From a virus (Duplodnaviria > Heunggongvirae > Uroviricota > Caudoviricetes): 48,921 nt of DNA. Positions 4,744 through 40,069 of this stretch are shown in pieces. The DNA is taken from IMG/VR virus record IMGVR_UViG_2778261394_000010, one strand, 5' to 3'. Numbering within the stretch: the first letter of the stretch is position 1; each line of letters opens with the position of its first letter. Under the pieces are notes generated by a model that was not told where the DNA came from, did not search any database, and was given only the letters and a program-made list of their open reading frames with translations. The translations under genes and the position numbers were made by a program.

Positions 4744-5072
4744 CAGTTCACCACCTGTTCAAACTCTGCGCTGAACTCAACACGCAGCATACTGACCCGC
4801 GACGACCATTTTGCGCAGGTCACCTTTATCTGCCGCCACTCATAAGGCGGCGTCCACAGAAAGGATTTCCAGCCCCCGTGCTCTTCCAGAAACGACTCCA
4901 GTACCGTGGCCTCCTCACGGGGGACAGAAAGCGTCACGCTGTACGTTTTCAGGTTGGCATTCAGCCCGGCAGGCGCTCGCTGGGAATAGCCATCACCAAA
5001 GCGCACCTTTCTTACAGAAGGGGCCGAAGCCACATCCATACCGGGTTTCACTTTCCAGCGGAAGGTCTTCAT
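4743..5072 (-). CDS. M: Minor tail protein M
   Basis: 109-aa ORF MKTFRWKVKPGMDVASAPSVRKVRFGDGYSQRAP… matches lambda gpM; overlaps the L start. Confidence 0.92.
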   Translation of the reverse strand: MKTFRWKVKPGMDVASAPSVRKVRFGDGYSQRAPAGLNANLKTYSVTLSVPREEATVLESFLEEHGGWKSFLWTPPYEWRQIKVTCAKWSSRVSMLRVEFSAEFEQVVN

Positions 5073-7630
5073 CGTCCACCTCCGGAGAACAGGCCACCAT
5101 CACGCATCTGTGTCTGAATTTCATCACGGGCACCCTTGCGGGCCATGTCATACACCGCCTTCAGAGCAGCCGGACCTATCTGCCCGTTCGTGCCGTCGTT
5201 GTTAATCACCACATGGTTATTCTGCTCAAACGTCCCGGACGCCTGCGACCGGCTGTCTGCCATGCTGCCCGGTGTACCGACATAACCGCCGGTGGCATAG
5301 CCGCGCATCAGCCGGTAAAGATTCCCCACGCCAATCCGGCTGGTTGCCTCCTTCGTGAAGACAAACTCACCACGGTGAACAATCCCCGCTGGCTCATATT
5401 TGCCGCCGGTTCCCGTAAATCCTCCGGTTGCAAAATGGAATTTCGCCGCAGCGGCCTGAATGGCTGTACCGCCTGACGCGGATGCGCCGCCACCAACAGC
5501 ACCGCCAATGGCGCTGCCGATACTCCCGACAATCCCCACCATTGCCTGCTTAAGCAGAATTTCTGTCATCATGGACAGCACGGAACGGGTGAAGCTGCGC
5601 CAGTTCTGCTCACTGCCGGTCAGCATCGCCGCCATATTCTGTGCAATACCATCAAAGGTCTGCGTGGCTGCACTTTTTACCTGCGACATACTGTCCGTGG
5701 CGCTCTCTTCCCACTCACTCCAGCCGGACTTCAGGCCTGCCATCCAGCTCCCGCGAAGCTGGTCTTCAGCCGCCCAGGTCTTTTTCTGCTCTGACATGAC
5801 GTTATTCAGCGCCAGCGGATTATCGCCATACTGTTCCTTCAGGCGCTGTTCCGTGGCTTCCCGTTCTGCCTGCCGGTCAGTCAGCCCCCGGCTTTTCGCA
5901 TCAATGGCGGCCCGTTTTGCCCGTTGCTGCTGTGCGAATTTATCCGCCTGCTGCGCCAGCGCGTTCAGGCGCTCCTGATACGTAACCTTGTCGCCAAGTG
6001 CAGCCAGCTGGCGTTTGTACTCCAGCGTCTCATCTTTATGCGCCAGCAGGGATTTCTCCTGTGCAGACAGCTGGCGACGTTGCGCCGCCTCCTCCAGTAC
6101 CGCGAACTGACTCTCCGCCTTCCACAAATCCCGGCGCTGCTGGCTGATTTTCTCATTTGCTCCGGCATGCTTCTCCAGCGTCCGGAGTTCTGCCTGAAGC
6201 GTCAGCAGGGCAGCATGAGCACTGTCTTCCTGACGATCGCCCGCAGACACCTTCACGCCGGACTGTTTCGGCTTTTTCAGCGTCGCTTCATAATCCTTTT
6301 TCGCCGCCGCCATCAGCGTGTTGTAATCCGCCTGCAGGATTTTCCCGTCTTTCAGTGCCTTGTTCAGTTCTTCCTGACGGGCGGTATATTTCTCCAGCGG
6401 CGTCTGCAGCCGTTCGTAAGCCTTCTGCGCCTCTTCGGTATATTTCAGCCGTGACGCTTCGGTATCGCTCTGCTGCTGCGCATTTTTGTCCTGTTGAGTC
6501 TGCTGCTCAGCCTTCTTTCGGGCGGCTTCAAGCGCAAGACGGGCCTTTTCACGATCATCCCAGTAACGCGCCCGCGCTTCATCGTTAACAAAATAATCAT
6601 CCTTGCGCAGATTCCAGATGTCGTCTGCTTTCTTAAACGCAGCCTCTGCCTTAATCAGCATCTCCTGCGCGGTATCAGGACGACCAATATCCAGCACCGC
6701 ATCCCACATGGATTTGAATGCCCGCGCAGTCCTGTCTGCCCAGGTCTCCAGCGTGCCCATGTTCTCTTTCAGGCGGCGGGTCTGGTCATCAAACCCTTTC
6801 GTTGCGGCCTCGTTCGCCGCCTGCAATGCCCCGGCTTCATCGCCGGAACGCTGCAACTGAGCAACATACGCAATCTGCTCCGCCGTCACGTTATGGAACT
6901 GGCGTGCCATCACCGTCAGCCCCGACGTCGGGTCTGTGGTCAGCTTCCCGAAGGCTTCAGCGACCTTGTCCACCTCCACGCCGGATGCAGAGGAGAAACG
7001 CGCCACACTCTGGCTGATGGACGCAATCTGAGCCTCACCGCTTACCCCCGCCTTAACCAGTGCGCTGAGTGACTCGCTGGTCTGGTTAAACGTCAGCCCT
7101 GCCGCCTGCCCGGCTCTGGACAAGACCAGCATACGATCTGCCGTCAGTCCCGCCTGATTGCCGGAAAGGACCAGCGTTTTGTTGAAATCGGACAGGGTTG
7201 AGTTGCCCTGATACCAGGCATACGCCAGCGCACCGGTCGCCACCGCCAGCGAGGTGGCCCCCACCATCGGCAGGGTGATCGCACCGGCAAGCCCCCTGAA
7301 CATGGGGATCATCCCGCCGAAGGAGTCCTTCACCTGCCCCCCCTGTTGCAGCAGGATCAGCCACGGACTTTGCCCGCCTGCAAGCTGCGTGGCCACGTCG
7401 GTGAACTGTGCAGGCAGCATACGCATGCCGGCTTTATACTGCCCGACGGAAATCCCCGCTTTCTGTGCAGCCAGCGCCTGTCGGCTCAGCGACTGTTCAA
7501 CGACTGCCGCTGTTTTTTTCGCATCACTTTCCGTACCGAAAAAATGACGCCTGACTCTGGCCATCTGCTCGTCAAATCTGGCCGCATCCAGACTCAAATC
7601 AACGACCAGATCGCCTACCGGTTCAGCCAT
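5069..7630 (-). CDS. H: Tail tape measure protein H
   Basis: 853-aa ORF, coiled-coil rich, with the glycine-rich segment GGAVGGGASASGGTA; same length and position as lambda gpH. Confidence 0.95.
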   Translation of the reverse strand: MAEPVGDLVVDLSLDAARFDEQMARVRRHFFGTESDAKKTAAVVEQSLSRQALAAQKAGISVGQYKAGMRMLPAQFTDVATQLAGGQSPWLILLQQGGQVKDSFGGMIPMFRGLAGAITLPMVGATSLAVATGALAYAWYQGNSTLSDFNKTLVLSGNQAGLTADRMLVLSRAGQAAGLTFNQTSESLSALVKAGVSGEAQIASISQSVARFSSASGVEVDKVAEAFGKLTTDPTSGLTVMARQFHNVTAEQIAYVAQLQRSGDEAGALQAANEAATKGFDDQTRRLKENMGTLETWADRTARAFKSMWDAVLDIGRPDTAQEMLIKAEAAFKKADDIWNLRKDDYFVNDEARARYWDDREKARLALEAARKKAEQQTQQDKNAQQQSDTEASRLKYTEEAQKAYERLQTPLEKYTARQEELNKALKDGKILQADYNTLMAAAKKDYEATLKKPKQSGVKVSAGDRQEDSAHAALLTLQAELRTLEKHAGANEKISQQRRDLWKAESQFAVLEEAAQRRQLSAQEKSLLAHKDETLEYKRQLAALGDKVTYQERLNALAQQADKFAQQQRAKRAAIDAKSRGLTDRQAEREATEQRLKEQYGDNPLALNNVMSEQKKTWAAEDQLRGSWMAGLKSGWSEWEESATDSMSQVKSAATQTFDGIAQNMAAMLTGSEQNWRSFTRSVLSMMTEILLKQAMVGIVGSIGSAIGGAVGGGASASGGTAIQAAAAKFHFATGGFTGTGGKYEPAGIVHRGEFVFTKEATSRIGVGNLYRLMRGYATGGYVGTPGSMADSRSQASGTFEQNNHVVINNDGTNGQIGPAALKAVYDMARKGARDEIQTQMRDGGLFSGGGR

Positions 7631-9620: not shown

Positions 9621-10195
9621 CGCTTTATTACCATCCTCAGTTGATGCTGCAGCGCATAGCCCAGCTCTTTCGGAAGACGCTCACGCCGTATCCGCTCAAT
9701 ATTCTGTTTAAACGCCGTGGTCAGCGGCACCGCCATCGGGATTTTCACCACATCAATGGGGTAACGATTTTTCCCGGCCACACGCTGCATGACATGCCAG
9801 CGGCCATTTTTCAGTTGCTGAATAAACGCGCCGGGAATACGACGGTTTCCCACCACAAGCACGCTGCCGCCACCTTTCAGGGCTGAACGCTGCCCCTTTT
9901 TACGACGCCTGCGTCGGGACAGGACAATCCGCGCGTTACCCAGCTTTATTACGGGCAAATCCCCCCGGTTAACCTTGATTTTGGCCTGCGGATTTTTGAC
10001 CGTGGCCCTTTTCAGCCTGGCCCTTTCCTTTACCAGTTTCCGGCGTACCTTTGTCTCACGGGCAACCTGTGACGCCGACTGCGATATCGCGGATGAAGCA
10101 ACGCGGTTAATGGCCATTGCGGCGGCACCGGGCACCGCCGTTCTGCTGATACGGCTGAGGTTTTCAACGGCCTGCTCAAGACCTTTTATGGCCAT
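9617..10195 (-). CDS. Z: Tail completion protein Z
   Basis: 192-aa ORF MAIKGLEQAVENLSRIS… with an RRRRRKKGQR stretch, matching lambda gpZ. Confidence 0.92.
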   Translation of the reverse strand: MAIKGLEQAVENLSRISRTAVPGAAAMAINRVASSAISQSASQVARETKVRRKLVKERARLKRATVKNPQAKIKVNRGDLPVIKLGNARIVLSRRRRRKKGQRSALKGGGSVLVVGNRRIPGAFIQQLKNGRWHVMQRVAGKNRYPIDVVKIPMAVPLTTAFKQNIERIRRERLPKELGYALQHQLRMVIKR

Positions 10196-11011: not shown

Positions 11012-11802
11012 TTACGCCAGTTGTACGGACACGAACTCATCAGGGTCAGCCAGCAGCATCAGCGGTGCTGACTGAATCATGGTGAACTCACGCGCCGGAT
11101 CGCCGGTGGTCACCCAGTTTTTCGGGTAACGGGCAGAGGCGTTAATGCCTTCGCGCTGTGCGTCCGCATCCTGAATGCAGCCATAGGTGCGCAGACCGCG
11201 TGCCTGAGTGTTCCCCAGCACCATCGTGTTGTCCGGCAGGAAGTTCTTTTTGACGCCGTTTTCCACGTACTGTCCGGAATACACGACGATGGCCACATCG
11301 CCATACATCCCCTTATAGGACACCGCTTTACCTAGGTCTTTCACCGCTGTCTCCAGCTCGGAATTAGAGCCACGACGGGTATCCAGCTTTTCCTTGACGG
11401 CTTTGAAGGAACGGAACAGCGCCCAGCCTTTCGGATCAAACACGATGATATTCACCACACCGCTGGCGTTCAGCGCGTAGGCTTCGATATCGTCGGTCGG
11501 GTCATACGTGGACTTGTCACGCTTGCTCCACTCCGTGCCGCCGGACTGCGTGATGTTATTCTCCTCACTGCGGCCCATATCCACCTCAACCGGATCGAAG
11601 GCTTCACCGGTCATGGTGTATTTGCCCTTAAGCACGGCAGAAACTGCCTGCATCTCTTCGACCTGAGCAATGGCCAGCTCTTCGTCACGCATGTTCTGCA
11701 TGATGATGCGACGGCGGCGGTAAGCCGGGTCCGCCAGATTCTGCGGATCTTCATCCGGCAGGCGACGCAGGGTCATCTGCGGATTCACTTCATGCTTCGG
11801 CT
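11012..11802 (-). pseudogene. E: Major capsid protein E, 3' fragment (codons ~83-341), separated from its 5' part by the inserted element
   Basis: Frame reads …PKHEVNPQMTLRRLPDEDPQNLADP… to the normal E C-terminus (…DEFVSVQLA); an in-frame TAG immediately upstream at 11801-11803 marks the insertion junction. Confidence 0.9.
11793..11802. repeat. Left junction core of inserted element (TGCTTCGGCT; rc AGCCGAAGCA)
   Basis: Identical 10-mer recurs at 22723..22732; E-derived sequence is continuous across the two copies once the intervening 10.9 kb is removed. Confidence 0.85.
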
Positions 11803-11874
11803 ACATGAGTCAAATATGAAAGGAACTGAATGATTTTTAATGAAATAAATGGCTCTCTCTATCAAAATACAGCT

Positions 11875-11900
11875 AAAAAGCAATACACGTAGCAATACAG
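11875..11900. repeat. 26-bp terminal direct repeat, left copy (aaaaagcaatacacgtagcaatacag)
   Basis: Near-identical copy (aaaaagcaatacaagctgcaatacag) at 22570..22595 just inside the right junction; contains tandem GCAATACA half-sites. Confidence 0.6.
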
Positions 11901-11929
11901 CGCTTCGCAAAGGTATGTCACTATATCTA

Positions 11930-12865
11930 CTAGTGCCAACCAGAATACGAATATCTTTGCTTTGCTTCTTCTGGGCTCATACCCACTAGTAAAGATACTA
12001 ATTCAAAGTCAGGTTGTGGAATTGGAATCAATGCAGCCAAATATGCTGGCTTATTGAGAACAATTGTTGATAATTTAGCTTTATTCACCTTAGATAACTC
12101 AATATTACTTTCCGCCACCTTCGGGAACTCCATAATAAATGAATTAATTTCCCTTATGAGATAATCGATCAACGCCACTATACTTTCTGTCAAATCAATA
12201 TATTTTGACAACTCACTAGCACCAATTTCTTTCTTTATTTCATCCAATTTAATTTCAAACACTGGCTTGTCTTTACTGGCAATATTAGACAAACGTTTCT
12301 TTAAATCTGAATCAAGCTGATTCCTGACAATTAAACTTTTCAAAACAAAATTATAATTAAACAAAAAAGCATCAATTCGAGCAATATTCCTCCATGAGTT
12401 TCCAATTTCTTCATCTGACGGCATAATAAGTTCATGTTTTAGTATCTTGTACTTAATAAAAAAAACAAACCTCTCAAATAGAGATTTATTAGCTGTGGGT
12501 ATCTTTTTTATAAATGAAAGACGGCTAATATCGTAATTCACCTCCCCGGCGTTAAATAAAAATTCATTTATTGCCAGCGCTCTTAATATCGGATTTCTAG
12601 ATCTCAAACCAATATAACTACTTTTAATTCCCACAAGTGTATTTATCATCTGAAAAGAAACCATCATAAGCGTATTAGCAGAATTAAATTTCTCCGTTTC
12701 TATTTTAATCTTCTCTTGCCTATTATTGATGTAATAAGCAGTTAAGCCTCCCATAAGCGCCGATAAAAAAGATAATGCAATAGGGAATACATAATCTTTT
12801 GTATAATCAACATCTGCTTTCAACATTAGTATTGCTTTAGCAATCAAAACTGCATCAGGGGTCAT
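11930..12865 (-). CDS. Hypothetical protein, AT-rich cargo gene with a predicted N-terminal transmembrane segment
   Basis: Long ORF with low-GC codon usage unlike its neighbours; hydrophobic stretch YVFPIALSFLSALMGGLTAYYI; no recognisable motif. ATG at 12865 preferred over the TTG at 12895 used by the ORF track. Confidence 0.5.
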   Translation of the reverse strand: MTPDAVLIAKAILMLKADVDYTKDYVFPIALSFLSALMGGLTAYYINNRQEKIKIETEKFNSANTLMMVSFQMINTLVGIKSSYIGLRSRNPILRALAINEFLFNAGEVNYDISRLSFIKKIPTANKSLFERFVFFIKYKILKHELIMPSDEEIGNSWRNIARIDAFLFNYNFVLKSLIVRNQLDSDLKKRLSNIASKDKPVFEIKLDEIKKEIGASELSKYIDLTESIVALIDYLIREINSFIMEFPKVAESNIELSKVNKAKLSTIVLNKPAYLAALIPIPQPDFELVSLLVGMSPEEAKQRYSYSGWH

Positions 12866-13565
12866 GTTAGAGCCGTCATTAAAAATTAAACACAATACCC
12901 ATAAAATATAACAGCTTATTGTTTAGAAAAGCAATATCATACACTCTATGATAAGCGTAATATCTGACAGGCATGGTGTGTTACGACACTTAATTAAACG
13001 TAATTTGCTAAAATTTTACACACAGAATCACACCTGGCTCTAACTCTCCTTTCATTACAATTGTAAGCATACAATTATCCTACCAGAACTTTATTGTTGA
13101 GCTCTCCCTTTTGAGCCCATCCCATAATGAATTGACGAAAGAACCGTATCTGTGGAGTAATCATTTCTGCGCGGTTCTATGTCGAAGACAAAATGTGGTA
13201 TGCGCATCTAGTCAGAGGGAAAGCAATTTTTCAGGGAAATATCATCTCTACATGGTTAAGACAACCAGAAGAAGTTATCAAGCAAGTTGGGTATGAAGAT
13301 TTTCCTATAATAGTAACGAAACGGGTTTCACCTGAGCGGTTGTGTTCGATCCGCCACAATACGCATAGGATGCCCTGTAATCCGTATTCTGCTTACTCAA
13401 CAGCTTACCAGCAGGACTCGTAAGGCTGTTGCGATAGTGCAGAAGTAGGCCACGACCATAAAGTGAAGCCAGTGGCGCGTTATCGACTACTTTAGTGTAG
13501 AGCCTGATTTCAACGCAAGCATGAGAGTTTTTTCTGGCGATAGGCCGTGACAAACAGCAACAAAA

Positions 13566-13766
13566 TCAGAGAAAGGAAACGGCAGAGGCCAAAAAGCCCG
13601 TTTTCAGCGCCTGTCATTTCCTTTCTTTTCAGAGGGTATTTTAAATAAAAACATAAAGTTACGGCGAAGAAGAACGGAAACGCCTTAAACCGGAAAATTT
13701 CCATAAATAGAGAAAAACTGCGCGCCTGACGCCCCGTAGCCTGTCAGATCGCCGGAAAGGACCCGC
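13566..13766. other. cos-like site of the inserted element, homologous to the helper cos region but with a diverged cosN 12-mer
   Basis: About 200 bp aligns without gaps to helper 28935..29133 (most positions identical by eye); the cosN position reads cgcctgacgccc (13723..13734) against helper aggtcgtcgccc. Confidence 0.8.
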
Positions 13767-13790
13767 CAGCCAGAGCGGGCCCTAATTTCA

Positions 13791-14174
13791 TCAACCAATC
13801 AGCTTATAGCGACCATCCCGTGCATTGCGGCGTACACGCTCAATCTTGAGGCATAGCGCCGCATCTGGCTTTTTTGGGACAGGTACGCGGCAATATTCAG
13901 AAGCGCGAGGAATATTATTTATCCAGTCGATCACTTCACTTAAATACCAGGCCTTACGCCCTTCCGTAACCTGCACACGCTCCGGGAACTCTCCACTAGC
14001 CTCAAGGTTTAGCAGTGTACGCCGACTCAGGGTTGTAATTTCCATCACCTGATTCATATCAACAAGGCGCTCGCTTAAACACATTTTGTCAGCGATAGCT
14101 TTTAATTCCTCTACAGCTGGATTCGGGTACATCATTTCGGCAATTGGCTTAAGGTCATTGTAATCATTCTGCAT
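13791..14174 (-). CDS. HTH protein with an AlpA/MerR-like C-terminal half, function unknown (regulator or packaging-specificity factor)
   Basis: 127-aa ORF; segment EITTLSRRTLLNLEASGEFPERVQVTEGRKAWYLSEVIDWI resembles AlpA-family HTH; strong SD AAGGGGG; immediately downstream of the D-like gene and upstream of the cos-like site. Confidence 0.55.
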   Translation of the reverse strand: MQNDYNDLKPIAEMMYPNPAVEELKAIADKMCLSERLVDMNQVMEITTLSRRTLLNLEASGEFPERVQVTEGRKAWYLSEVIDWINNIPRASEYCRVPVPKKPDAALCLKIERVRRNARDGRYKLIG

Positions 14175-14185
14175 TGTATCCCCCT

Positions 14186-14527
14186 TTACACACGAGCCAG
14201 CGGCTGAACAGAAATACCTGAGCCAACAAACGCGGCAACCTTTGCCGACAGTTCTCTTACAGACTCAGGCCAGTTCAGAGCATCAACATTTAAAACACCT
14301 GTCTTATAAACCTGTGCCTGTGTTTTTTTCGCTGTGTCGATTTGTACAGCGGAAACATAAACCGCTTTGCCTGCGCTCGTTCCATCCCATACCACTAGCG
14401 CACCAGTTGCATCTTCCTGCATCAGTGGCGTAAACGCAGGTATTACCCCTTTATTGGCTGAAAATATCCCCAGCGTAGTAACCAGTGCTTCAGTGCCAGA
14501 CATGAGTTCAGTGTAATGAGTAGCCAT
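14186..14527 (-). CDS. Head decoration protein, diverged gpD homolog carried by the element
   Basis: 113 aa; …AFTPLMQEDATGALVVWDGTSAGKAVYVSAVQ… parallels lambda gpD …[35 protein letters not shown]…; strong SD AAGGGGGAG. Confidence 0.7.
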   Translation of the reverse strand: MATHYTELMSGTEALVTTLGIFSANKGVIPAFTPLMQEDATGALVVWDGTSAGKAVYVSAVQIDTAKKTQAQVYKTGVLNVDALNWPESVRELSAKVAAFVGSGISVQPLARV

Positions 14528-14536
14528 TGCTCCCCC

Positions 14537-15577
14537 TTAGCCAATGCGAACGGTAACAAAACGATTGATGCGGGCCGGTATTGGCTGTGGTGCTGAATGT
14601 GTCTGCACATATTCAATAGCCGGATCACCAGGCACAATATAGTTTTTCGGTGCAAGTTCGGCTTTAGTCAGCCCCATTCGGATTAGCTCCGGATCCTGAA
14701 TACCGCCATAGGCGACAATCCCCTGAAGAGCCGTATTGCCAAGCACCATCAAATCAGGATCAAGGAAATGTTTTTCAGTTCCGTCCTCGTCGGTATAACG
14801 CCCGCTGTATACAACAATCGCAACATCGCCCATATACCCTTTAAAACTCACCGAATCACCAAGGTCTTTAAGGGCCGTTTCCAGTTCGGAATTAGAACCA
14901 CGACGGGTATCCAGAGCCTCTTTTATCGCTCTGAATGAACGGTATTTCTTCCATACATTACCGCCCATAATGATGATATTAGTGACGCCCTCACTAAATT
15001 CTGCGTAGCTCTCAATATCATCATTTGGATCAAAAGTTTCTTTATCCTTACCTGACCACTCAGCACCGCCAGACTGAGTGATGATATTTTGTGGTTTAAT
15101 ATTCCAGTCCAGCTCATAACGTTCAATACCATCGCCCTCAATGATATTTTTCCCCGTTGTGATTGCCTGAACGGCAAGCCATTCAATACGTGCACGAATA
15201 GCTTTAGCCTGATTTACAATCGCCTGTTTAACTTTAATATTACGCGCTCCAAAAGCATTGTATTGCTCAGGTGATACACCAGCAGGGCGCACAGCTAACT
15301 TATTTGGATCAATGCTGCTTTTCGGCTTCATATAGCCTGGACGAATTGTTTTTGATTCGTACCCTTCGTCACGTGAAACTTTACTACCCACCATAGGAGA
15401 ACAAAACGCTGCAATTGGGATATTTGGATCGTCGATTGTATCAAGAATAATATCGCGCGATTCAAACATTACCGAGCGAGTAAAAAACAAACTGGTAAAC
15501 AACGCATTTAGTTGTTTTTGTACATCTACAGCATTAACCACCTGTACAAGCTGGGTAGGCGAATATAAATCAACCAT
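14537..15577 (-). CDS. Major capsid protein, diverged gpE homolog carried by the element
   Basis: 346 aa from ATG at 15577 (SD AAGAGGA); shares ITQSGG.EWS, TRRGSNSELET and GDVAIVVYSG motifs with lambda gpE but is clearly diverged; earlier in-frame starts at 15583 and 15598 are possible. Confidence 0.85.
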   Translation of the reverse strand: MVDLYSPTQLVQVVNAVDVQKQLNALFTSLFFTRSVMFESRDIILDTIDDPNIPIAAFCSPMVGSKVSRDEGYESKTIRPGYMKPKSSIDPNKLAVRPAGVSPEQYNAFGARNIKVKQAIVNQAKAIRARIEWLAVQAITTGKNIIEGDGIERYELDWNIKPQNIITQSGGAEWSGKDKETFDPNDDIESYAEFSEGVTNIIIMGGNVWKKYRSFRAIKEALDTRRGSNSELETALKDLGDSVSFKGYMGDVAIVVYSGRYTDEDGTEKHFLDPDLMVLGNTALQGIVAYGGIQDPELIRMGLTKAELAPKNYIVPGDPAIEYVQTHSAPQPIPARINRFVTVRIG

Positions 15578-15749
15578 ACGCATCCTCTTTGCATTCATTA
15601 AAAATAATTGTGGATATATGCTATCACCGATATTTGTCATGCGAATACATGCAACCGAGTGCAATGTTGTATAAAGTTTTGGGATGACAACTTCAGCACG
15701 GATAATTAGTGTTAATATCTTCACTCCCTTTGGTCTGGATTTATGTAGC

Positions 15750-15790
15750 ATGCCGGAAAATTTATTTTTTTTCCGGCCTTTTTTATTGGC
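15750..15790 (+). terminator. Hairpin with flanking T-tract (gccggaaaa…ttttccggc + ttttttatt)
   Basis: 9-bp perfect stem followed by a T-run on the plus strand, between the SSB and capsid genes; may act in either direction given the flanking A/T tracts. Confidence 0.4.
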
Positions 15791-15795
15791 AATAT

Positions 15796-16245
15796 TTAAA
15801 ACGGAATATCATCTCCCCATTGCTCATTATCTCCCACTGGTGGATGGCTTCCTTGCTGATCTGCCTGTTGTTTTGCTCTGTTCAGTGCGTCAGTAGCCTG
15901 ACCCTGTTGATCTTTTTTGCCGCCCGGTCGCACCGTTCGCGCACTGATTACGCTGTCTGCGATAACCTGCCAGCCCTGCCGCGTTTCACCGTTCTGTCCA
16001 GTCCACTGGCTCACCTGCATATTACCCGCCACGCTCAGGAGTTCGCCTTTGTGATGCTTTGCCAGCGTGTCGGCTTGTCTGCCAAACGCCAGCACAGATA
16101 ACCACATCGTCGCCGTTCCGTCATCTGCCTGGCTGCATGGCAAAGATACCGCCATCCGTGCCAGTGTCATGGGTGTTCCCTTGCTGGTATGTTTTACCTG
16201 TGGGTCGTCCACCAGCCGCCCGTAAGCTGCTATTTGCGCCGTCAT
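15796..16245 (-). CDS. ssb: Single-stranded DNA-binding protein
   Basis: 149 aa with Gly/Gln-rich linker and acidic C-terminal tail ending DDIPF, the SSB hallmark. Confidence 0.85.
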   Translation of the reverse strand: MTAQIAAYGRLVDDPQVKHTSKGTPMTLARMAVSLPCSQADDGTATMWLSVLAFGRQADTLAKHHKGELLSVAGNMQVSQWTGQNGETRQGWQVIADSVISARTVRPGGKKDQQGQATDALNRAKQQADQQGSHPPVGDNEQWGDDIPF

Positions 16246-16256
16246 GCTGCCTGCTC

Positions 16257-16499
16257 TCAGGACTTAATATTGATGGTTGTCACTTCCTCCGCTTCGGCAA
16301 TCTCCCGTTCGGTCAGCGTGGCAAAGTTTGCAGCCGCCGTTGTCATGAATGCGCTTATCAGTTCGGGATGTGCTTTCGCGTATCCTTCCCCGGCGTTGCG
16401 GTCTATTGCCTTAATCGCCACCCTTAGCCAGTGTTCAGCCATATCAAGGGCGCGGTAATGTGGCTTTATATGTTTGTTCAGTTTTCCTGATGTGTGCAT
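16257..16499 (-). CDS. Hypothetical protein
   Basis: 80-aa ORF between the iteron origin and ssb, co-oriented with the replication operon; no motif recognised. Confidence 0.4.
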   Translation of the reverse strand: MHTSGKLNKHIKPHYRALDMAEHWLRVAIKAIDRNAGEGYAKAHPELISAFMTTAAANFATLTEREIAEAEEVTTINIKS

Positions 16500-16546
16500 T
16501 TTTATTTTTACCCCCTCGTTTAAAAAGTTTTTTGTGCACCACCACC

Positions 16547-16777
16547 TTGTCTACCTTGTCTACCTGATTAGTTATCAGGCCAGTAATGGCGCGGGTTTCA
16601 GGGAGGTAGACAGCCCCAAATAGCTGTCTACCTCATCTCTACCCGTCTCCTTACCTGTCTACAAAAATGGGTAGATAAGGTAGATAACAGGTAGACAGTG
16701 AAAAATAGTTATCTACCTGCATTAATACATTGAAATAAAAGCATTTTATTTCAGTCAGGTAGACAAGGTAGATAACC
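16547..16777. repeat. Iteron cluster, putative replication origin of the element
   Basis: At least 12 copies of GGTAGAYA / TRTCTACC in both orientations, some tandem (ggtagataaggtagataacaggtagacag), with AT-rich spacers, immediately downstream of the primase-helicase gene. Confidence 0.7.
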
Positions 16778-16788
16778 ATTGCCATTTT

Positions 16789-18540
16789 TTATAAAAACGC
16801 ATCGCAATCATCAGTAGTCGTTGCGTTGGTCTGCGTGACTCCCTTAACTTTTCGCGTAATATATTCATATCCGTAAACTTTCGCCGCTGACCTCATAGCC
16901 TTTCCGAACTCATTCACGCTCAAACATTTCCCCTTTCCTGTATATGCCATGAAGGCCATATAGACACGGTAAAGGCTGTTTCTGGTCGTGTACTTCACGG
17001 TGTCACCACCACCGCCCATCATTAGCCCACGAGCTTCCTCCAGAAACTCCAGCGCCGCGCAAAGCTCAACAACCGGATCCGTTTGCTGCTTTATTGCCAG
17101 AGCTTCATCACCGTCACGCTGTTCCAGTAATAAAGCCCGTGCCTTTTCAGGGTCAGCAAAATTAGCCAGCAAGCGGCGGATAATTACGGGGATTTCTGCC
17201 GCTATCTTTTCCGGTAATTCCTTGTCTTTTTCGTCCTCCCTTACAATGTTGTCGAACCGGAAAATCACCCGACGGCGTGACACACCTCCGGCCCGTTCGG
17301 TAAAGATCATCGGGTCGTTATTGGTTGCCAGTACCACCGCCCTTATTATCGTCGTGAATCGCTTCTCATATTTCGGGTTAATTTCAACGGGATCGCCTCC
17401 CGTGATTTTCTTGATGCCCGTGCCTTCCCCCGTATATTTCGGCTGATCGGCAAGGACGATAAGACGACTCCCGACAACCTGCGCACGCCCTCCTGCATCA
17501 TCGAGTGATGTCATCTCTGCGCTTACGGTGTTCTGTTTGCCAGCAAGCAGGGTGGCAATATGGGTAAATGTACTCTTACCGCTTCCCCCGTCTCCGGTGG
17601 CCTCAATGAACATCTGCCAGTCGTACCGGTTCGCCATAATCATGTACAGCGCGGCACATATACGCATCATCTTGCGCGGGTCTTTTCCGGCTGCGTGCTC
17701 AAGCCATTTATGAAAGTTTGGCGCGTTATCGCGGATGTTCTCCCCTGGTGCTGGTGGCGTGTACTCAATGCCGTTGTGCGTGGTGATCCAGTTCTCCGGC
17801 GTGTGCGGGGAAAATTCCCCCGTTTTCAGGTCAAGCGCACCATTGGCGAACGGCAGCAAATCGCCGGACGGCTCGCCCATTGGTTCGGCAATAACTTTTA
17901 ACGCTTCAACGGCGTTATTGATCACGCGTTTGCTGAAAGTGGCCCTGTGCTCTGAATAGATCGCCACCATTTCGCGGCTCAGCTCCATTGTGCTGATCGG
18001 ACACCATACCCCGCCGCGCCATACGTGAACGATTTCACTTTCCGGATGCACACAAACGCCATCAAAGCGCTCGGCAAGCAGCTGCGCGCGCTCACTGTCT
18101 GCCATCTGTGAAAGTTGCGCCTTTTGCTTCGTCGGAAGATTAAGCACCAGGCTTTCCCCACGCTCGCATTCCTCTTTGAGTCGCGGCAACTGGTCGGATA
18201 AATCCACTGGGCTGGTGTCAGTAATCCCCGCGTATTCGTGTACGGTCTTCACTCCAGCCACAGCCAGTAACGTAACAATCTGCGTCATGCTGTGCTCTGT
18301 GATATGTCCTGCGCGGTAAACACGCACACACTGACGATCTTCATCAATGATCCGGTAATCGGTGATGTTTTTCAGTTGCTCATCAGCCAACACGACAGGC
18401 GGCACATCGTCGGCGGCAATATGTTTACCCGCCCATTCCTGCCACTCTTTCGCATGGCTCCACGCATCACTACCTGCAAAGATGATTATCTCTGTCAGTC
18501 TGTCGCGTGGCTGTTTTTTTAAGTTCGGTGCCAGTTTCAT
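16789..18540 (-). CDS. Primase-helicase replication protein (P4-alpha / D5-like, SF3 helicase)
   Basis: 583 aa; Walker A GDGGSGKST followed by a D5_N/SF3-like region (…IVLADQPKYTGEG…LATNNDP…); adjacent to the iteron origin. Confidence 0.85.
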   Translation of the reverse strand: MKLAPNLKKQPRDRLTEIIIFAGSDAWSHAKEWQEWAGKHIAADDVPPVVLADEQLKNITDYRIIDEDRQCVRVYRAGHITEHSMTQIVTLLAVAGVKTVHEYAGITDTSPVDLSDQLPRLKEECERGESLVLNLPTKQKAQLSQMADSERAQLLAERFDGVCVHPESEIVHVWRGGVWCPISTMELSREMVAIYSEHRATFSKRVINNAVEALKVIAEPMGEPSGDLLPFANGALDLKTGEFSPHTPENWITTHNGIEYTPPAPGENIRDNAPNFHKWLEHAAGKDPRKMMRICAALYMIMANRYDWQMFIEATGDGGSGKSTFTHIATLLAGKQNTVSAEMTSLDDAGGRAQVVGSRLIVLADQPKYTGEGTGIKKITGGDPVEINPKYEKRFTTIIRAVVLATNNDPMIFTERAGGVSRRRVIFRFDNIVREDEKDKELPEKIAAEIPVIIRRLLANFADPEKARALLLEQRDGDEALAIKQQTDPVVELCAALEFLEEARGLMMGGGGDTVKYTTRNSLYRVYMAFMAYTGKGKCLSVNEFGKAMRSAAKVYGYEYITRKVKGVTQTNATTTDDCDAFL

Positions 18541-18836
18541 TTTTTGCCCCTGAATGCGTTAATCATGCTTTTCATTTTCTGGATGTTTCCCCGCGCTTTT
18601 TCCCTGCTGATGGGCTTACTGCGGGGTGCGGCATATACCAGGGAAAAATCACGCCGGAACTGATAAACAGGCATCACGCAGTCATAGCTATACCCCTCAC
18701 GACGGTAAGTGATGCGCCGTTCTGCCACGCCTTTAATCGTTACCGTGCCGCCGTATTTATCGCGGTAAATATCGCCGTTCATAAATTCAGGCCGAGCGGG
18801 GCCGCTGGCAATAAAGCCAGAATTTTTCATTTCCAT
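18537..18836 (-). CDS. Hypothetical protein
   Basis: 99-aa ORF whose stop overlaps the primase-helicase start (4-nt overlap), suggesting translational coupling. Confidence 0.4.
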   Translation of the reverse strand: MEMKNSGFIASGPARPEFMNGDIYRDKYGGTVTIKGVAERRITYRREGYSYDCVMPVYQFRRDFSLVYAAPRSKPISREKARGNIQKMKSMINAFRGKK

Positions 18837-18853
18837 ATTATTTATTCCTCGAC

Positions 18854-19075
18854 TTAACTCGACTTATTTGATAGCAGGGCACTATTTATTGCGTCATTGA
18901 GTTTTTCTGCTGCTTCATCAATAAGTGACAACAGGCCATAAGCAATATTTGCATCTTCATTGTCATTTATGCAATCAAGCCACATATTTAATATTGCTTT
19001 TGCTGAATTATTTAAAGTTAATGAACTTTCTGCACATGCTAACAATTTAAAAAAGACTTCCCGTTCTGTATTCAT
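18854..19075 (-). CDS. Hypothetical small protein (AT-rich)
   Basis: 73-aa ORF in the same operon; low GC. Confidence 0.3.
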   Translation of the reverse strand: MNTEREVFFKLLACAESSLTLNNSAKAILNMWLDCINDNEDANIAYGLLSLIDEAAEKLNDAINSALLSNKSS

Positions 19076-19267
19076 TTAATCCCCCACCAGCTTACTTTCT
19101 TCCTCAATCAAAAAACTAGCGACACTTCCCGAAAGACGCGCCAGTAGGCTCGCCAGTGCGGATATATCAGCATCTGTAATTTTGTTCGGGTATACCTCAA
19201 GAAGGCGGCAAATAATTTCTGTCTGGTGCGCACGTTCAGCGGCTTCGTGTAATGTGATTTCCTGCAT
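19076..19267 (-). CDS. Hypothetical small protein
   Basis: 63-aa ORF tightly packed between neighbours. Confidence 0.3.
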   Translation of the reverse strand: MQEITLHEAAERAHQTEIICRLLEVYPNKITDADISALASLLARLSGSVASFLIEEESKLVGD

Positions 19268-19452
19268 TAATGCACCTCTTTTAATTCATACACTGCTGAA
19301 ATAATGACTTGTGATAAGCCATATTCTGATGATTCGCTTCTCACCGCAGCAATAGCCGTCTGAACATTAACAGCCTTCACATTCTGAGCGATACCAATTG
19401 TGTGGCCTATTGGGTTAACAGCTCGGGCAAATACACGGAAGGTTTTAAGCAT
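19267..19452 (-). CDS. Hypothetical small protein, first gene of the element's leftward operon
   Basis: 61-aa ORF directly downstream of the divergent control region. Confidence 0.3.
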   Translation of the reverse strand: MLKTFRVFARAVNPIGHTIGIAQNVKAVNVQTAIAAVRSESSEYGLSQVIISAVYELKEVH

Positions 19453-19832
19453 GACTCACTCCCTGGCGGATTTTTGCAGCGAATACAGCAACACAACCGG
19501 ACGGGCAACGGCTACGCGCTTCGCGTTCCGTCCAGGCGGTTACGTGGATGATTTGAGATTCTCCGGCACTCAGTGCCAGAAAACGCCACACAAAGGCCGT
19601 TTGTGTGTGTACAAGGTGTGGTATATGATTTACAGCAACCATAACGGCTCCTAGTTTACGTTGTTGGTTAGACGCCCCGTATGTGTTCCCAGCACTGCGG
19701 GGCGTTGCTCTTTGTATTTCAACAATCCTTTCGGTGTGTTTCATGTTATGAGCGCATGAAACACACGTCAAGGCTTTTTGTATTTCTTTTTTTGTGTATA
19801 CTGAAACACACCGATGATTAGGAGTTTCAGAA

Positions 19833-20138
19833 ATGGCAACGGCTAACAAAAACGCAAAATCACAACTGACAACTGTCAGAGTCCCACTAGATGTTATGCA
19901 AGGGATGGAATCCGTTAAGCTGGACGGTGAAAGCAATGCCGGATTTATCGTAACCGCCATGCGCGGTGAAATCGCCCGCCGCCAGGCAGAAGGAAGCGGA
20001 GAAAATCCCCTCGTGTCTTCACTGGATACCTTAGCTAAGGTCGAACAAATCGGCATCAAGGCAGCGGAGGAAATCGGGCAACTCGTAGCCGTCGCTCGTG
20101 AAGAACTCCAGCGGCGTAAAGCCAAAGAATCTGAATAA
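19833..20138 (+). CDS. Putative regulator of the element, fold not assigned
   Basis: 101-aa ORF with strong SD AGGAG, transcribed divergently from the replication/capsid operon across a structured intergenic region. Confidence 0.4.
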   Translation: MATANKNAKSQLTTVRVPLDVMQGMESVKLDGESNAGFIVTAMRGEIARRQAEGSGENPLVSSLDTLAKVEQIGIKAAEEIGQLVAVAREELQRRKAKESE

Positions 20139-20488
20139 TTAGTATCAGCGCCGTGATGTGAGTAACTACGGCGCATTGCTATGTAAATACTGGCAATAAA
20201 CAGAAAAGGTAGTTCTACTCCGAATAATTTTATCTGACACTACTCCTGAACTAACATGCGCTTATCTTACAGGATATAAATATAAATCCATAAAATCACG
20301 ATTAAATAAAGTCGCTCCAAACATAAACCACACCCAACGCTTAACAAGATAGCAACAAACAGGTAAATAACTTGCAGAAATATTTATCGCAAGGATTATC
20401 ATTATTAATGACAAATCACTTTACCAAGTCATTCCCCTCTCTTATCATAAAGAGAAAGTAATAAATAAGTTAAGGGAGTTAGAATGCT

Positions 20489-21025
20489 ATGAATCTAAAA
20501 AAAATAGCCACAAACACAAAAAACAAGATAACAGAAACATTTAATAAACTTATATTAGAGGCATCTAAAACCCCCACACAAGATGAAATTAAAATACTTG
20601 AGAGAAGGAGTAAGAAGTTTAATTACTCCTTTTTCTCATACGCAGTCACAGGAGCTATAATAGTTTTTTGCTCTCAACCATTAATTAAATACGCAAACCC
20701 AATACTTATTTTATTGAGTGGTCTGTTACTGTCTATCATCATTATCATTCTCAGAATGATTTATATTTCACAAGCGAATGCATCATGGACAACCAAAAAA
20801 CGCTCACATGTACTAGTTCATTTTCTTTCTGCATGTTTCATAGCATCAACATTGACGTTGCTATATCAGGCTTACGATAATAACATCACACACAAATTGT
20901 ACTGTAAAAATATACAACAACTTATTGAAAAAAGGATAGAAACAGAAAAAAACATCAGCATATTCAGTGGGATGCAATGCACCCCGGTATATGATTACTC
21001 TTTATTTGGATTTAATCTCTTATAA
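20489..21025 (+). CDS. Hypothetical membrane protein, AT-rich cargo gene
   Basis: 178 aa with hydrophobic segments (AVTGAIIVFCSQPLI, ILILLSGLLLSIIIIIL); very low GC; followed by a perfect 13-bp inverted repeat. Confidence 0.5.
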   Translation: MNLKKIATNTKNKITETFNKLILEASKTPTQDEIKILERRSKKFNYSFFSYAVTGAIIVFCSQPLIKYANPILILLSGLLLSIIIIILRMIYISQANASWTTKKRSHVLVHFLSACFIASTLTLLYQAYDNNITHKLYCKNIQQLIEKRIETEKNISIFSGMQCTPVYDYSLFGFNLL

Positions 21026-21034
21026 AGAATGTTA

Positions 21035-21068
21035 TTACTGATTTGAGTACAAATTCTCAAATCAGTAA
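21035..21068. terminator. Perfect 13-bp inverted repeat (ttactgatttgag / ctcaaatcagtaa), probable bidirectional terminator
   Basis: Lies between the convergent cargo gene (+) and the AlpA gene (-), flanked by A/T runs. Confidence 0.5.
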
Positions 21069-21094
21069 TTCATAATATTTTATTCTGAGATAAT

Positions 21095-21331
21095 TTAAAC
21101 TACCCACTCACCTCGAATCCATGCCTGCACTTCTGAAAGACGATATGCAACAGCAGTGGAACCAATCTTGATCCGCTTAGGAAATTTTCCTTCCTTCTCC
21201 AGCTTCCAGCGTGTGCTGTTCGCAAGAGTGGTTAGCTCCCGACATTCTTTCTCACGGATCATTCGGTCAATGTTAGGAATGTACTCCAGACCCTTTTTAT
21301 CAACAATTGCCATTTTTTTCATGTTAACCAA
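21095..21331 (-). CDS. alpA: AlpA-family HTH regulator / excisionase-like protein
   Basis: 78 aa; ELTTLANSTRWKLEKEGKFPKRIKIGSTAVAYRLSEVQAWI fits the AlpA/Xis HTH_17 pattern; immediately downstream of the integrase. Confidence 0.75.
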   Translation of the reverse strand: MVNMKKMAIVDKKGLEYIPNIDRMIREKECRELTTLANSTRWKLEKEGKFPKRIKIGSTAVAYRLSEVQAWIRGEWVV

Positions 21332-22559
21332 CCTTTTGTTTGAGGATTGTCACTTTTGAATCAGCACCTGCGATGCTATTGAGATATGTAGTCCAGAGTT
21401 CCAGAGCATCCAGTTTTTTAGCCATAAACTTACTCCGGTTGTAAACACCTGCCACGCCAGGTAGCGCATGGCCTAACAGTTGTTCTACTACATAAAATTC
21501 AACACCGAGATCACTTAGATGAGTAGATAGCGTTCTTCTAAGGTCGTGTAGTGACCATTGTTTTTCATGGCCCAAACGTTTACCGATTTTCCCCCCAATC
21601 TTGCTTACGCTTTCTCTAATTCGCAGACTTCCCAGCACATAACCAGTATGTTTTGTCTCTTCGTGAACATCCGTTACCCACTGTCGTAGAATTTCAGGTA
21701 CTGGTCTGACGATTTCAACACCAGTTTTTGAGTGATCTTTTGGTACAGTCCAAACCCAACTTTCGAGATCCCATTCGCTCCATTCTGATAATCGGGCTTC
21801 ACTCATTCGACATCCAAATACTGTACAAAGCACAAACATTTTTCGCGTGTATTCAGACATTAGTTTTAAATCAGGCTCGACAAAAATTGCCTTCCAGAGC
21901 TGGCCGAGTTCGGCTTCATCCAGAACCCGATCCCGCTTACCTGCAATCTGCCCCACATCACTCATGCGCAAATCCTTTAAAGCATCACACGTCGCGTACT
22001 GGCGTACCCGACAAAAACGAAGAGCTAATTTAGTGTCAGAAAAAACATACGCCGCCATAACTGGTGCATTACGTTTAATTCGGTCAAAACAGTCCAGCCA
22101 TTCATATAGGTGAGTGTCATTTACGGGCAAATGACCGATATAGGGAAAGATATGCTTTCGAAATCTGCCAAGCGTTACAGCATGAGTTTTACGACGCACC
22201 TTACAGTAATTTTCATACCAGTAATTTAGTGCATCCTCCACTGTAACCGGCTTTAAGCGTTCTTCAGCCTGAATCTTAATCTGGATACGCGGATCACGTT
22301 TGTCAGCCAACCAACCACGGCACTCGTCGCGCTTTTCCCTTGCCTGTTTGAGTGACATATCAGGATATTTACCCAACGTTAGCCAGACCGGAGCAGCCCG
22401 GCCACCTGCTAACCTGTAGAAGAAAACAAAGCTCACAGCCCCTTTAGTACTCACACGAATAGAAAGCCCCTTTCCATCAGCAATGGTGATCTGCTTTTCT
22501 CTGGGTTTCCCCAGATATCCTTTAAGCGCTTTGTCGCTCAGTTTGTTCTCGCCAGCCAT
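21324..22559 (-). CDS. int: Tyrosine integrase (P4-type) of the inserted element
   Basis: ATG at 22559 gives MAGENKLSDKALKGYLG…; C-terminal catalytic region with …HDLRRTLSTHLSDLGV…LLGHA…; about 160 bp from the right junction core. Confidence 0.9.
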   Translation of the reverse strand: MAGENKLSDKALKGYLGKPREKQITIADGKGLSIRVSTKGAVSFVFFYRLAGGRAAPVWLTLGKYPDMSLKQAREKRDECRGWLADKRDPRIQIKIQAEERLKPVTVEDALNYWYENYCKVRRKTHAVTLGRFRKHIFPYIGHLPVNDTHLYEWLDCFDRIKRNAPVMAAYVFSDTKLALRFCRVRQYATCDALKDLRMSDVGQIAGKRDRVLDEAELGQLWKAIFVEPDLKLMSEYTRKMFVLCTVFGCRMSEARLSEWSEWDLESWVWTVPKDHSKTGVEIVRPVPEILRQWVTDVHEETKHTGYVLGSLRIRESVSKIGGKIGKRLGHEKQWSLHDLRRTLSTHLSDLGVEFYVVEQLLGHALPGVAGVYNRSKFMAKKLDALELWTTYLNSIAGADSKVTILKQKVG

Positions 22560-22569
22560 TTTTAGCCCC

Positions 22570-22595
22570 AAAAAGCAATACAAGCTGCAATACAG
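22570..22595. repeat. 26-bp terminal direct repeat, right copy
   Basis: aaaaagcaatacaagctgcaatacag, matching the left copy at 11875..11900 at 24 of 26 positions by eye. Confidence 0.6.
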
Positions 22596-22722
22596 AGATG
22601 ATTGCAACACACAGATAACGAGGAAAATTCAGTGAAAGCACCAGATAAACTTATTCTTTATTATCAAAAGATTAAGTGTAAAAACCAGCAACTACACGAA
22701 AGCCTCAGAAAGCCATGCTAAG

Positions 22723-22732
22723 TGCTTCGGCT
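22723..22732. repeat. Right junction core of inserted element (TGCTTCGGCT)
   Basis: Second copy of the 10-mer; on the minus strand E reads …GTC AAG CCG AAG CAC and then diverges into element sequence (LAWLSEAFV stop). Confidence 0.85.
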
Positions 22733-22967
22733 TGACGTATCCCGGCGTAAATTCAGAGGTGGAGCCGCCACGGGAACGGATAACCTCACCGGAAACAATC
22801 GGCGAAACGTACAGCGCCATGTTTACCAGTCCCGGAATTTGTGAGAGATAGACTTTCTCCGTGGTGAAGGGATAGCTCTCACGGAAAAAGAGACGCAGAA
22901 ACAGCGGATCAAACTTAAATTTCTGCTCATTTGCCGCCAGCAGTTGGGCGGTTGTGTACATCGACAT
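22723..22967 (-). pseudogene. E: Major capsid protein E, 5' fragment (codons 1-82)
   Basis: ATG at 22967 gives MSMYTTAQLLAANEQKFKFDPLFLRLFFRESYPFTTEKVYLSQIPGLVNMALYVSPIVSGEVIRSRGGSTSEFTPGYVKPKH, the lambda gpE N-terminus, then runs into the element. Confidence 0.9.
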
Positions 22968-28911: not shown

Positions 28912-29135
28912 TGTTCATTCCACGGCCAAAAACAGAGAAAGGAAACGACAAAGGCCCAAAAGTTCGTTTTCAGCACCTGTCGTTTCCTTTCTTTTCAGGG
29001 GGTATTTTAAATAAAAACATTAAGTTACGACGAAGAAGAACGGAAACGCCTTAAACCGGAAAATTTTCATAAATAGCGAAAACCCGCGAGGTCGTCGCCC
29101 CGTAACCTGTCGGATCGCCGGAAAGGACCCGCAAA
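28912..29135. other. Helper phage cos region (cosB - cosN - cosQ); cosN 12-mer at 29089..29100
   Basis: Sequence is the reverse complement of the remembered lambda genome ends; cosN reads aggtcgtcgccc, one position different from lambda aggtcgccgccc; the Nu1 start abuts the cosB side. Confidence 0.85.
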
Positions 29136-29494: not shown

Positions 29495-29658
29495 ACATCC
29501 CGCGTTCTTCCCTCCGAACAGGACGATATTGTAAATTCACTTAATTACGAGGGCATTGCAGTAATTGAGTTGCAGTTTTACCACTTTCCTGACAGTGACA
29601 GACTGCGTGTTGGCTCTGTCACAGGCTAAATAGTTTGAATGATTAGCAGTTATGGTGA

Positions 29659-31145: not shown

Positions 31146-31176
31146 TTGCATGAGTTGCCCATCGATATGGTCAGCT

Positions 31177-39983: not shown

Positions 39984-40069
39984 AATTCCTCCCGCAATGA
40001 GTGTGTTACGATTTGCACCTGAAAGTCGGTTCTGTTCGCGCAGACCGGCTTTCGCCATTTCCGAACCTG

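Follow-up and report, generated by a model that had tools for sequence, protein, structure and literature searches.

Background

Helper-embedded phage-inducible chromosomal islands (HE-PICIs) are phage satellites described in 2023 by Tommasini, Mageeney and Williams (NAR Genomics and Bioinformatics, PMC10111431). Their prototype, Eco567.11capE, is an 11-kb island of Escherichia coli NRG857c that lies within, and disrupts, a gene very closely related to lambda E, shows a 10-bp identity block and carries a capsid gene of its own; its site group, E:Phage_cap_E:80, comprised 201 instances (PMC10111431). In this study, we analyzed a 48,921-bp stretch of DNA, hereafter called the window (IMG/VR virus record IMGVR_UViG_2778261394_000010, Caudoviricetes), in which an integrative satellite is inserted inside gene E, the major capsid gene, of a lambda-like helper prophage. 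The insert can be assigned with high confidence to the HE-PICIs of site group E:Phage_cap_E:80, as near kin of Eco567.11capE.

In the prototype strain treated with mitomycin C, the composite of helper and satellite was found to excise and replicate, and precise excision of the satellite followed from about 2 h, as recorded by quantitative PCR (qPCR) and deep sequencing; replication after excision was seen in one of three repeats only (PMC10111431). The same authors proposed that E is not expressed before excision, and that helper replication and late transcription spread passively into the co-oriented satellite. They also recorded a cos match of 258 bp at 90% identity in the prototype and an HE-PICI-specific doubled motif, TGTATTGCnnnnTGTATTGC (tgTGTATTGCantgTGTATTGCa), which occurs as two co-oriented copies, one 81+/-2 bp upstream of the attP centre and the other 132+/-2 bp downstream of it (PMC10111431).

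Related satellites of lambdoid phages include the Rpp-type cos PICIs, which have helper-like cosQ and cosN, no cosB match and the rpp gene next to cos (Feiss 2022). For EcCICFT073, phage-sized DNA has been reported, and deletion of its capsid and decoration homologues was without phenotype.

Insertion in gene E and attachment sites

The first-pass annotation of the window, made from the DNA letters alone, had described an E frame that is interrupted and resumes some 10.9 kb away, with one 10-mer at both junctions, and this description was fully borne out. The frame starts on the minus strand at ATG 22967 and reads MSMYTTAQ...TPGYVKPKH, after which come nine foreign codons, LAWLSEAFV*. The gene is split at 11802/22723 by an insert of 10,920 bp, and removal of 11803-22732 from the window leaves a single continuous E open reading frame (ORF) of 341 codons. 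The following features, annotated in part by the Prokaryotic Genome Annotation Pipeline (PGAP), define the site:

11012-11802, minus strand: 3' part of the helper major capsid gene E, with codons 79-341 and the stop codon, including one copy of the att core (restored ORF; PGAP pseudogene "major capsid protein, missing N-terminus")
11793-11802: att core at the cargo-side end, TGCTTCGGCT, reverse complement AGCCGAAGCA; the identity block "agccgaagca" of E_Phage_cap_E_80 HE-PICIs (PMC10111431, supplementary file 3)
11880-11899, minus strand: GCAATACAcgtaGCAATACA, a doubled arm-type motif at a distance of about 82 bp from the centre of the core (repeat family), matching the published tgTGTATTGCantgTGTATTGCa
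22575-22594, minus strand: GCAATACAagctGCAATACA, the second doubled arm-type motif, at a distance of about 133 bp from the centre of the core (repeat family)
22723-22732: att core at the integrase-side end (repeat search)
22723-22967, minus strand: 5' part of helper gene E, with codons 1-82 followed by nine element-encoded codons and a stop (PGAP pseudogene "missing C-terminus")

Exactly two copies of TGCTTCGGCT are present in the window, at 11793-11802 and 22723-22732. With 0.16 matches expected by chance per window, and two or more copies found in 2 of 100 shuffles, the 10-mer by itself is only weakly significant; chance is nevertheless implausible because a full-length, conserved E gene is restored exactly. 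The restored E DNA matches the uninterrupted capsid gene of E. coli OkiPb01714 at 100% identity; against lambda E (J02459, 6135-7160) the figure is 99.5%. The E proteins of lambda and of the helper are identical. The repeat corresponds to E codons K79-P80-K81-H82. The integrase gene, which had been placed about 160 bp from the right junction, starts at ATG 22559, 164 bp from it. The predicted attP would join ...CATGGCTTTCTGAGG/.../AGCCGAAGCA to the 11803 side, and the attB predicted to result from excision would read ...GGATACGTCAAGCCGAAGCATGAAGTGAATCCG....

Relationship to the published HE-PICIs

The insert has the features by which the E:Phage_cap_E:80 group was defined. It lies inside a late gene of a lambdoid prophage, at about codon 80, with the 10-bp block agccgaagca (the alternative being aacccaagca) and the core AGCCGAAGCA; int, alpA and the primase gene are co-oriented on the minus strand; and the doubled TGTATTGC motif, published as diagnostic, lies at the distances given for it (~82 and ~133 bp). 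At the DNA level int-alpA is about 99% identical to that of the prototype, the integrase gave a tblastn identity that rounds to 100% over 411 amino acids, and the attachment arm is nearly identical to that of the NRG857c locus. By this similarity to the prototype, the integrase can be placed in the 11capE subclade. The satellite capsid gene differs from that of the prototype at 1 of 1,041 nucleotides (99.9% identity), and the gene for a 127-amino-acid helix-turn-helix (HTH) protein is identical in the two.

Two catalogued copies are all but identical to the element. CP019903.1/2738644-2749573 and AP017610.1/911619-922546 are both listed as E_Phage_cap_E_80 HE-PICIs in ybhC-site helpers, the former with the identity block agccgaagca (PMC10111431), and over the whole insert they are 99.8% and 99.9% identical, respectively, to the element studied here.

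The element and Eco567.11capE share the insertion codon, the 10-bp block, the orientation, the gene order, the doubled arm motif and a variant cosN (see below). They differ in the core (AGCCGAAGCA here and AACCCAAGCA in the prototype, both of which are in the table of PMC10111431), in the site of the helper (ybhB|ybhC here and icd in the prototype) and in the cargo (a 311-amino-acid protein here and HEPN + DUF262 in the prototype). They also differ in the primase, with 47% protein identity, and in the iterons next to it, which are GGTAGAYA here (16548-18540 together with the primase gene) and GGTGAACA-like at the same place in the prototype (locus 4930-7030), whereas the int, alpA, SSB and capsid genes around them are 95-100% identical. 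The replication module thus appears to have been swapped as a unit, and the assignment of the origin is supported because primase and iterons differ together between the two elements. This difference is not described in the HE-PICI and PICI literature that we found.

The arrangement is therefore real but already known. The biological reading given by the first-pass annotation, that of a satellite in helper gene E with duplicated att, co-oriented genes and E switched off until excision, agrees with the published model. Its further statement that this is not a standard described arrangement has to be given up, since a 2023 publication describes the same system at the same site, counts 201 instances and documents excision by experiment (PMC10111431); the window holds one more instance.

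Gene content and replication origin

The insert had been said to encode a tyrosine integrase, an AlpA-type regulator, a primase-helicase with an iteron origin, a single-stranded DNA-binding protein (SSB) and capsid homologues, nearly all co-oriented with the helper late operon. Pfam supported the integrase, AlpA, the D5_N/DUF5906 primase, SSB, Phage_cap_E and the lambda head decoration family, a motif count supported the origin, and only two genes were found on the plus strand, all others being on the minus strand together with the late operon. The inventory thus stood for the genes that it listed, but a cos site belonging to the satellite had been overlooked. In the direction of the late operon the order is int, alpA, small genes, primase, SSB, capsid, decoration, HTH, cos and cargo, as follows:

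21324-22559, minus strand: tyrosine integrase, 411 amino acids (Pfam Arm-DNA-bind_3, Phage_integrase)
21095-21322, minus strand: AlpA, excisionase/regulator (Pfam Phage_AlpA, E 2.8e-15; RefSeq WP_000737991.1, as in the prototype)
19833-21025, plus strand: two opposite-strand genes, for a YlcI/YnfO-family protein (101 amino acids, 19833-20138) and a 178-amino-acid protein (20489-21025)
18537-19642, minus strand: DUF4222 protein, three small conserved ORFs and Icd-like protein (Pfam DUF4222; phrog_2196, phrog_1478, phrog_3672; PGAP name "Icd-like")
16789-18540, minus strand: D5-type primase-helicase, 583 amino acids (Pfam D5_N, DUF5906, Pox_D5; phrog_864 DNA primase, E 6e-162)
16548-16775: replication origin, with ten iterons GGTAGAYA in both orientations around an AT-rich stretch
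15796-16245, minus strand: SSB (Pfam SSB, E 3.4e-15)
14537-15577, minus strand: satellite major capsid protein, lambda E homologue, 346 amino acids (Pfam Phage_cap_E, E 1.4e-41; 42% identity to helper E over the full length)
14186-14527, minus strand: satellite head-decoration protein, lambda D homologue, 113 amino acids (Pfam HDPD, E 4.6e-15; 40% identity to helper D)
13791-14174, minus strand: second AlpA-family HTH protein, 127 amino acids (phrog_2790 "excisionase and transcriptional regulator", E 1e-49; PDB 8c3t, AlpA family protein, E 2e-9; identical to that of the prototype)
13561-13766, minus strand: satellite cos, described in the next section
12866-13560: about 0.7 kb without an annotated gene, within the variable cargo module (no PGAP feature)
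11930-12865, minus strand: variable cargo gene for a 311-amino-acid protein (phrog_21267, function not assigned, E 1.6e-131)

All genes of the element are intact and the att repeats are perfect. With 10,920 bp, int and alpA at one end, a primase gene with an iteron origin on its 3' side, a cos site and neither tail nor lysis genes, the element follows the pattern of Gram-negative PICIs of about 10-15 kb (Fillol-Salom 2018). All ten copies of GGTAGAYA in the window fall within one cluster of about 230 bp directly 3' of the primase gene, between its stop codon and the next gene; Tandem Repeats Finder returned only two tiny arrays at the origin, and the cluster was exposed by the direct motif count. 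An ORF of 80 amino acids lies between the primase and SSB genes. At the position equivalent to att, the satellite capsid gene has the codons AAGCCGAAAAGCAGC, compared with AAGCCGAAGCATGAA in helper E.

Of the four zones that HE-PICIs show in order, Integration, Bro, Replication and Late, the first, third and fourth are clear, and the interval from alpA to the primase gene consists of small ORFs, the Icd-like gene and the two opposite-strand genes. For the 101- and 178-amino-acid proteins of the latter, neither PADLOC nor Pfam at its curated cut-off gave a match, and the 178-amino-acid protein, the one of the pair that was run against PHROGs, gave no match there. A search of the whole window against Rfam at gathering thresholds, in which P4-type C4/isrK immunity RNAs were sought, returned no match.

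Similarity to other variants of the element starts at query position 1758, which is window position 13560, and query positions 1-1757 are replaced in other copies. This cargo end (11803-13560) holds the phrog_21267 protein here, HEPN and DUF262 genes in the prototype and DUF2971 in other copies. Because the HEPN and DUF262 genes of the prototype occupy the same position, the cargo end may be a variable accessory or defence slot. Assignment of the present cargo to a known defence system was unsupported: PADLOC gave no match for the 311-amino-acid protein and, among the cargo protein and the small and unassigned ORFs, nothing except a marginal match for the AlpA-like protein (E 0.003).

The satellite cos site

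Two cos sites are present in the window:

13561-13766, minus strand: satellite cos (cosQ-cosN-cosB), 89% identical to helper cos 28927-29132, with the cosN 12-mer at 13723-13734
28927-29132, minus strand: helper prophage cos, directly upstream of Nu1, with the cosN 12-mer at 29089-29100

On alignment to lambda (48443-48502/1-200), the similarity of the satellite cos extends from cosQ to just before the start codon of Nu1; the site therefore spans cosQ, cosN and the entire cosB interval. Relative to the helper, cosQ and most of cosB are kept and the differences are mainly in and around cosN, where the satellite 12-mer GGGCGTCAGGCG differs from that of the helper, GGGCGACGACCT, at 5 of 12 positions; in lambda, cosN is GGCGGCGACCT preceded by G (GGGCGGCGACCT). 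The prototype in NRG857c carries the same variant. A site of this kind is the packaging signal that would be expected in a satellite of a cos phage, and the combination of a variant cosN with a helper-type cosB is not described in the HE-PICI and PICI literature found.

An exact search of IMG/VR for the variant cosN yielded 34 contigs. In every one of them the flanking sequence covered contains satellite late-module genes at 93-100% identity, with the full capsid-decoration-HTH set in 30, and none (0/34) has a phage-type arrangement; on the basis of these contigs, an origin of the variant from another phage, which would be the true helper, was rejected. On the Nu1 side of the satellite cos no gene is annotated. 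In four of the 34 contigs a homologue of Nu1/TerS, 71-72% identical to that of the helper, lies directly downstream of the variant cos; in the prototype (locus 9979-10173) only the first 15 codons of Nu1 are present, fused to unrelated sequence, and in the element of this window Nu1 has been lost wholly. This suggests that the cos module had been acquired along with terS and later eroded.

The PDB, which includes Rpp entries, was searched by sequence with the 127-amino-acid gene product encoded beside cos; no Rpp homologue was found, the search returned an AlpA-family structure only, and the identification of this gene as rpp was rejected.

Distribution among genomes

A total of 5,426 complete E. 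coli genomes were covered. The junction between the arm of the element and the 5' fragment of E was found in 173 of them, and 47 genomes contain at least 80% of this particular element, with at least three alternative cargo ends. Uninterrupted E genes, that is, empty sites, are present in 3,154 of the 5,426 genomes and in every one of the 89 phage records that matched; one intact copy agrees with the restored gene at 100% identity. The helpers are located at icd, proP, ybhC and R, and at dsbB|tehB in Salmonella (PMC10111431, table). From the varied cargo ends, the empty sites and the helpers at several chromosomal sites it follows that integration has been repeated, and that the arrangement is neither a single inherited accident nor an assembly error.

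One further contig, IMGVR_UViG_2740892440_000002, links the capsid-decoration-HTH-cos module (99-100% identity) to an integrase of 53% identity. By its sequence the late module would thus also circulate in islands that presumably use another attachment site, and because it is found with such an integrase, the capsid-decoration pair is not specific to E-disrupting elements.

The helper prophage

The window matches E. coli MN06021 (NZ_CM129879.1) at 100% identity; in that strain the helper, a lambda-like prophage, occupies the lambda attachment site between ybhB and ybhC; one of its att cores is GCTTTTTTATACTAA and the other a copy with one mismatch. Its lambda-type gene set is full and consists of int, xis, exo/bet/gam, N, cI, cro, cII, O, P, the nin genes, Q, the lysis genes, Nu1, A, W, B, C, D, the split E, FI to J, lom, stf and tfa, head and tail genes being included. 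Helper and satellite together measure 57.5 kb, which exceeds the packaging limit of lambda, and the helper without the insert measures 46.6 kb.

The helper is altered relative to lambda. Its b region (record 3108388-3110837, outside the window) carries an IS1A copy, transposase fragments and an AraC-family regulator gene, because of which phage production is not guaranteed; two small pseudogenes are also present. Beside cI, at about 37530-40270 (record 3154083-3157426), a truncated hypothetical gene is followed by a gene for an NYN-domain protein. In lambda the position next to cI is that of rexAB, and these genes may be defence or exclusion cargo encoded by the prophage. Moron-type genes are present at about 29300-33020 (record 3146457-3150178): iss (serum-resistance lipoprotein) and a ylcI/ynfO-family gene are situated between the lysis genes and cos, and a porin gene separates Q from the lysis cassette. 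A YlcI/YnfO-family protein is encoded by the satellite as well (19833-20138).

Proposed life cycle and alternative explanations

The tyrosine integrase would have recombined the 10-bp attP core with codons 79-82 of gene E in a lambda-like prophage, and the integrated satellite, by splitting E, would leave the helper without a major capsid protein of its own until excision. Upon SOS induction the 57.5-kb composite would excise and replicate as one unit, as shown for the prototype. Helper late transcription, in a Q-dependent way, would probably then continue from D and E into the co-oriented int, alpA, primase and capsid genes; the terminator scan placed no terminator-like hairpin between the E fragment and int, and the counts of promoter-like and terminator-like sites were near chance (those of terminator-like sites equalled the shuffle expectation). 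Next, Int and AlpA would excise the satellite precisely, so that E would be restored and a 10.9-kb circle released. Excision of this kind was shown for the prototype, and in the present copy it is supported by the perfect repeats and by intact int and alpA. The circle may replicate alone from its own primase and iteron origin, and the helper terminase would be expected to package it by means of cosQ-cosN-cosB, most plausibly as concatemers of about four units (43.7 kb) in phage-sized heads, as reported for EcCICFT073.

Several points count against this account. For this copy, the case for excision, late read-through and packaging comes by extension from the prototype or from the anatomy of the locus. 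The authors of the HE-PICI study could detect no virions of the prototype satellite or of its helper (PMC10111431), and transfer has never been demonstrated for the E:Phage_cap_E:80 group. The five differences among the 12 positions of the cohesive end might reduce cutting by the resident terminase. The scan also gave a single candidate hairpin on the coding strand, at 21069-21034 downstream of alpA, and Pfam and Rfam found neither a Bro-N domain nor a C4/isrK RNA, features of the published "Bro zone", in the interval between alpA and the primase gene.

The way in which the satellite is packaged might also be unlike that of Rpp-type E. coli PICIs. Instead of a retargeting of TerS by Rpp, helper-type cosQ and cosB would be bound directly by helper TerS, the satellite would have its own cohesive ends, E would be withheld in cis, and the E/D-like pair would perhaps build heads reserved for the satellite or altered in size. 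We regard this as a tentative proposal, more probably wrong than right. If true, the distinct cohesive ends would keep those of satellite and helper from annealing together.

A different role for the satellite E-like and D-like genes is that they replace the split helper E, heads being built from the satellite capsid protein regardless of excision; these heads might differ in size or exclude other DNA from packaging. Homologues of E (full-length, 42%) and of D (40%) do stand together beside cos, capsid-decoration-HTH genes accompany the variant cosN in 34 of 34 contigs, and a "backup copy" was considered in PMC10111431. The same module, however, occurs with the 53%-identical integrase and hence is not tied to disruption of E, the fit of a 42%-identical protein with the helper portal, protease and scaffold is unproven, and deletion of the homologous genes of EcCICFT073 had no reported phenotype. 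Replacement of the helper capsid protein is therefore considered unlikely, though it is the strongest of the alternatives.

Much less probable is a dead insertion, in which integration took place a single time, into a prophage since become defective, and the arrangement is passed on vertically, with neither excision nor transfer. Many HE-PICI helpers look truncated and no virions were recovered (PMC10111431), and the b region of the helper studied here contains IS1 and transposase fragments, two small pseudogenes being present in this prophage as well. In contrast, the satellite ORFs are all intact between perfect att repeats, the integrase shares about 99% identity with one for which precise excision was demonstrated, and the existence of at least three cargo ends, two primase/origin alleles, several helper sites and copies in Salmonella requires repeated integration. 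A chimeric assembly of the junctions, which the first-pass annotation had named as a possible refutation, is hardly conceivable, given that independent projects recovered this junction in 173 complete genomes, and given the confirmation of the prototype att sites by qPCR and deep sequencing (PMC10111431).

Comparison with other satellites

EcCICFT073 and the Rpp-type Gram-negative cos PICIs (Fillol-Salom 2018, 2019; Feiss 2022) resemble the HE-PICI of this window in a size of about 11 kb, in int, alpA, a primase gene with a downstream iteron origin, capsid and decoration homologues and cos, and in their lambdoid helpers. They differ in that they integrate in chromosomal genes and act in trans only, whereas the present element lies inside its helper. 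Their cos pattern is reversed here: cosB is of the helper type, cosN diverges and Rpp was not detected. The combination that characterizes the Rpp type, an rpp gene by cos and a helper-like cosQ/cosN without helper cosB, is thus absent.

Capsid-forming PICIs (cf-PICIs) likewise encode a major capsid protein of their own. As they have been described, they encode all of the capsid-building proteins and take only tails from the helper; measured against that description, the present element has capsid and decoration genes only and lacks a complete capsid and packaging set.

Satellite P4 is similar in its size of about 11 kb, as a satellite of temperate coliphages, in its D5-like primase and in having the cos type of its helper. 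The element studied here differs in having a lambdoid helper and a lambda-type cos instead of those of P2, no homologues of Sid, Psu or Delta are annotated in it, and no C4/isrK RNA was found at the Rfam gathering threshold. P4 integrates in a tRNA gene and not in its own helper. The P4 integrase falls within the same broad clade as the HE-PICI integrases (PMC10111431).

A comparison with regulated gene integrity or "active lysogeny", as exemplified by skin in Bacillus sigK, was drawn in PMC10111431: in both cases an element splits a gene and its timed excision restores that gene. Unlike in skin-type elements, the gene interrupted here is part of a second mobile element, and it is the satellite, not the cell, that is served by the timing.

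Conclusions

The idea of a helper-embedded satellite has already been published, together with the first experiments in its support, and the window holds a catalogued instance, not a discovery. Its remaining value is that of a clean, apparently complete example in a lambda-like helper at the lambda attB. Questions that this copy could address are whether particles are produced, what role the satellite capsid and decoration proteins play, and whether the helper terminase cuts the variant cosN. A satellite placed inside its helper's capsid gene is a striking case of cis-acting hyperparasitism, in which the helper would make no heads until the satellite leaves, and in which the satellite would be replicated, and probably transcribed, by the helper for free.

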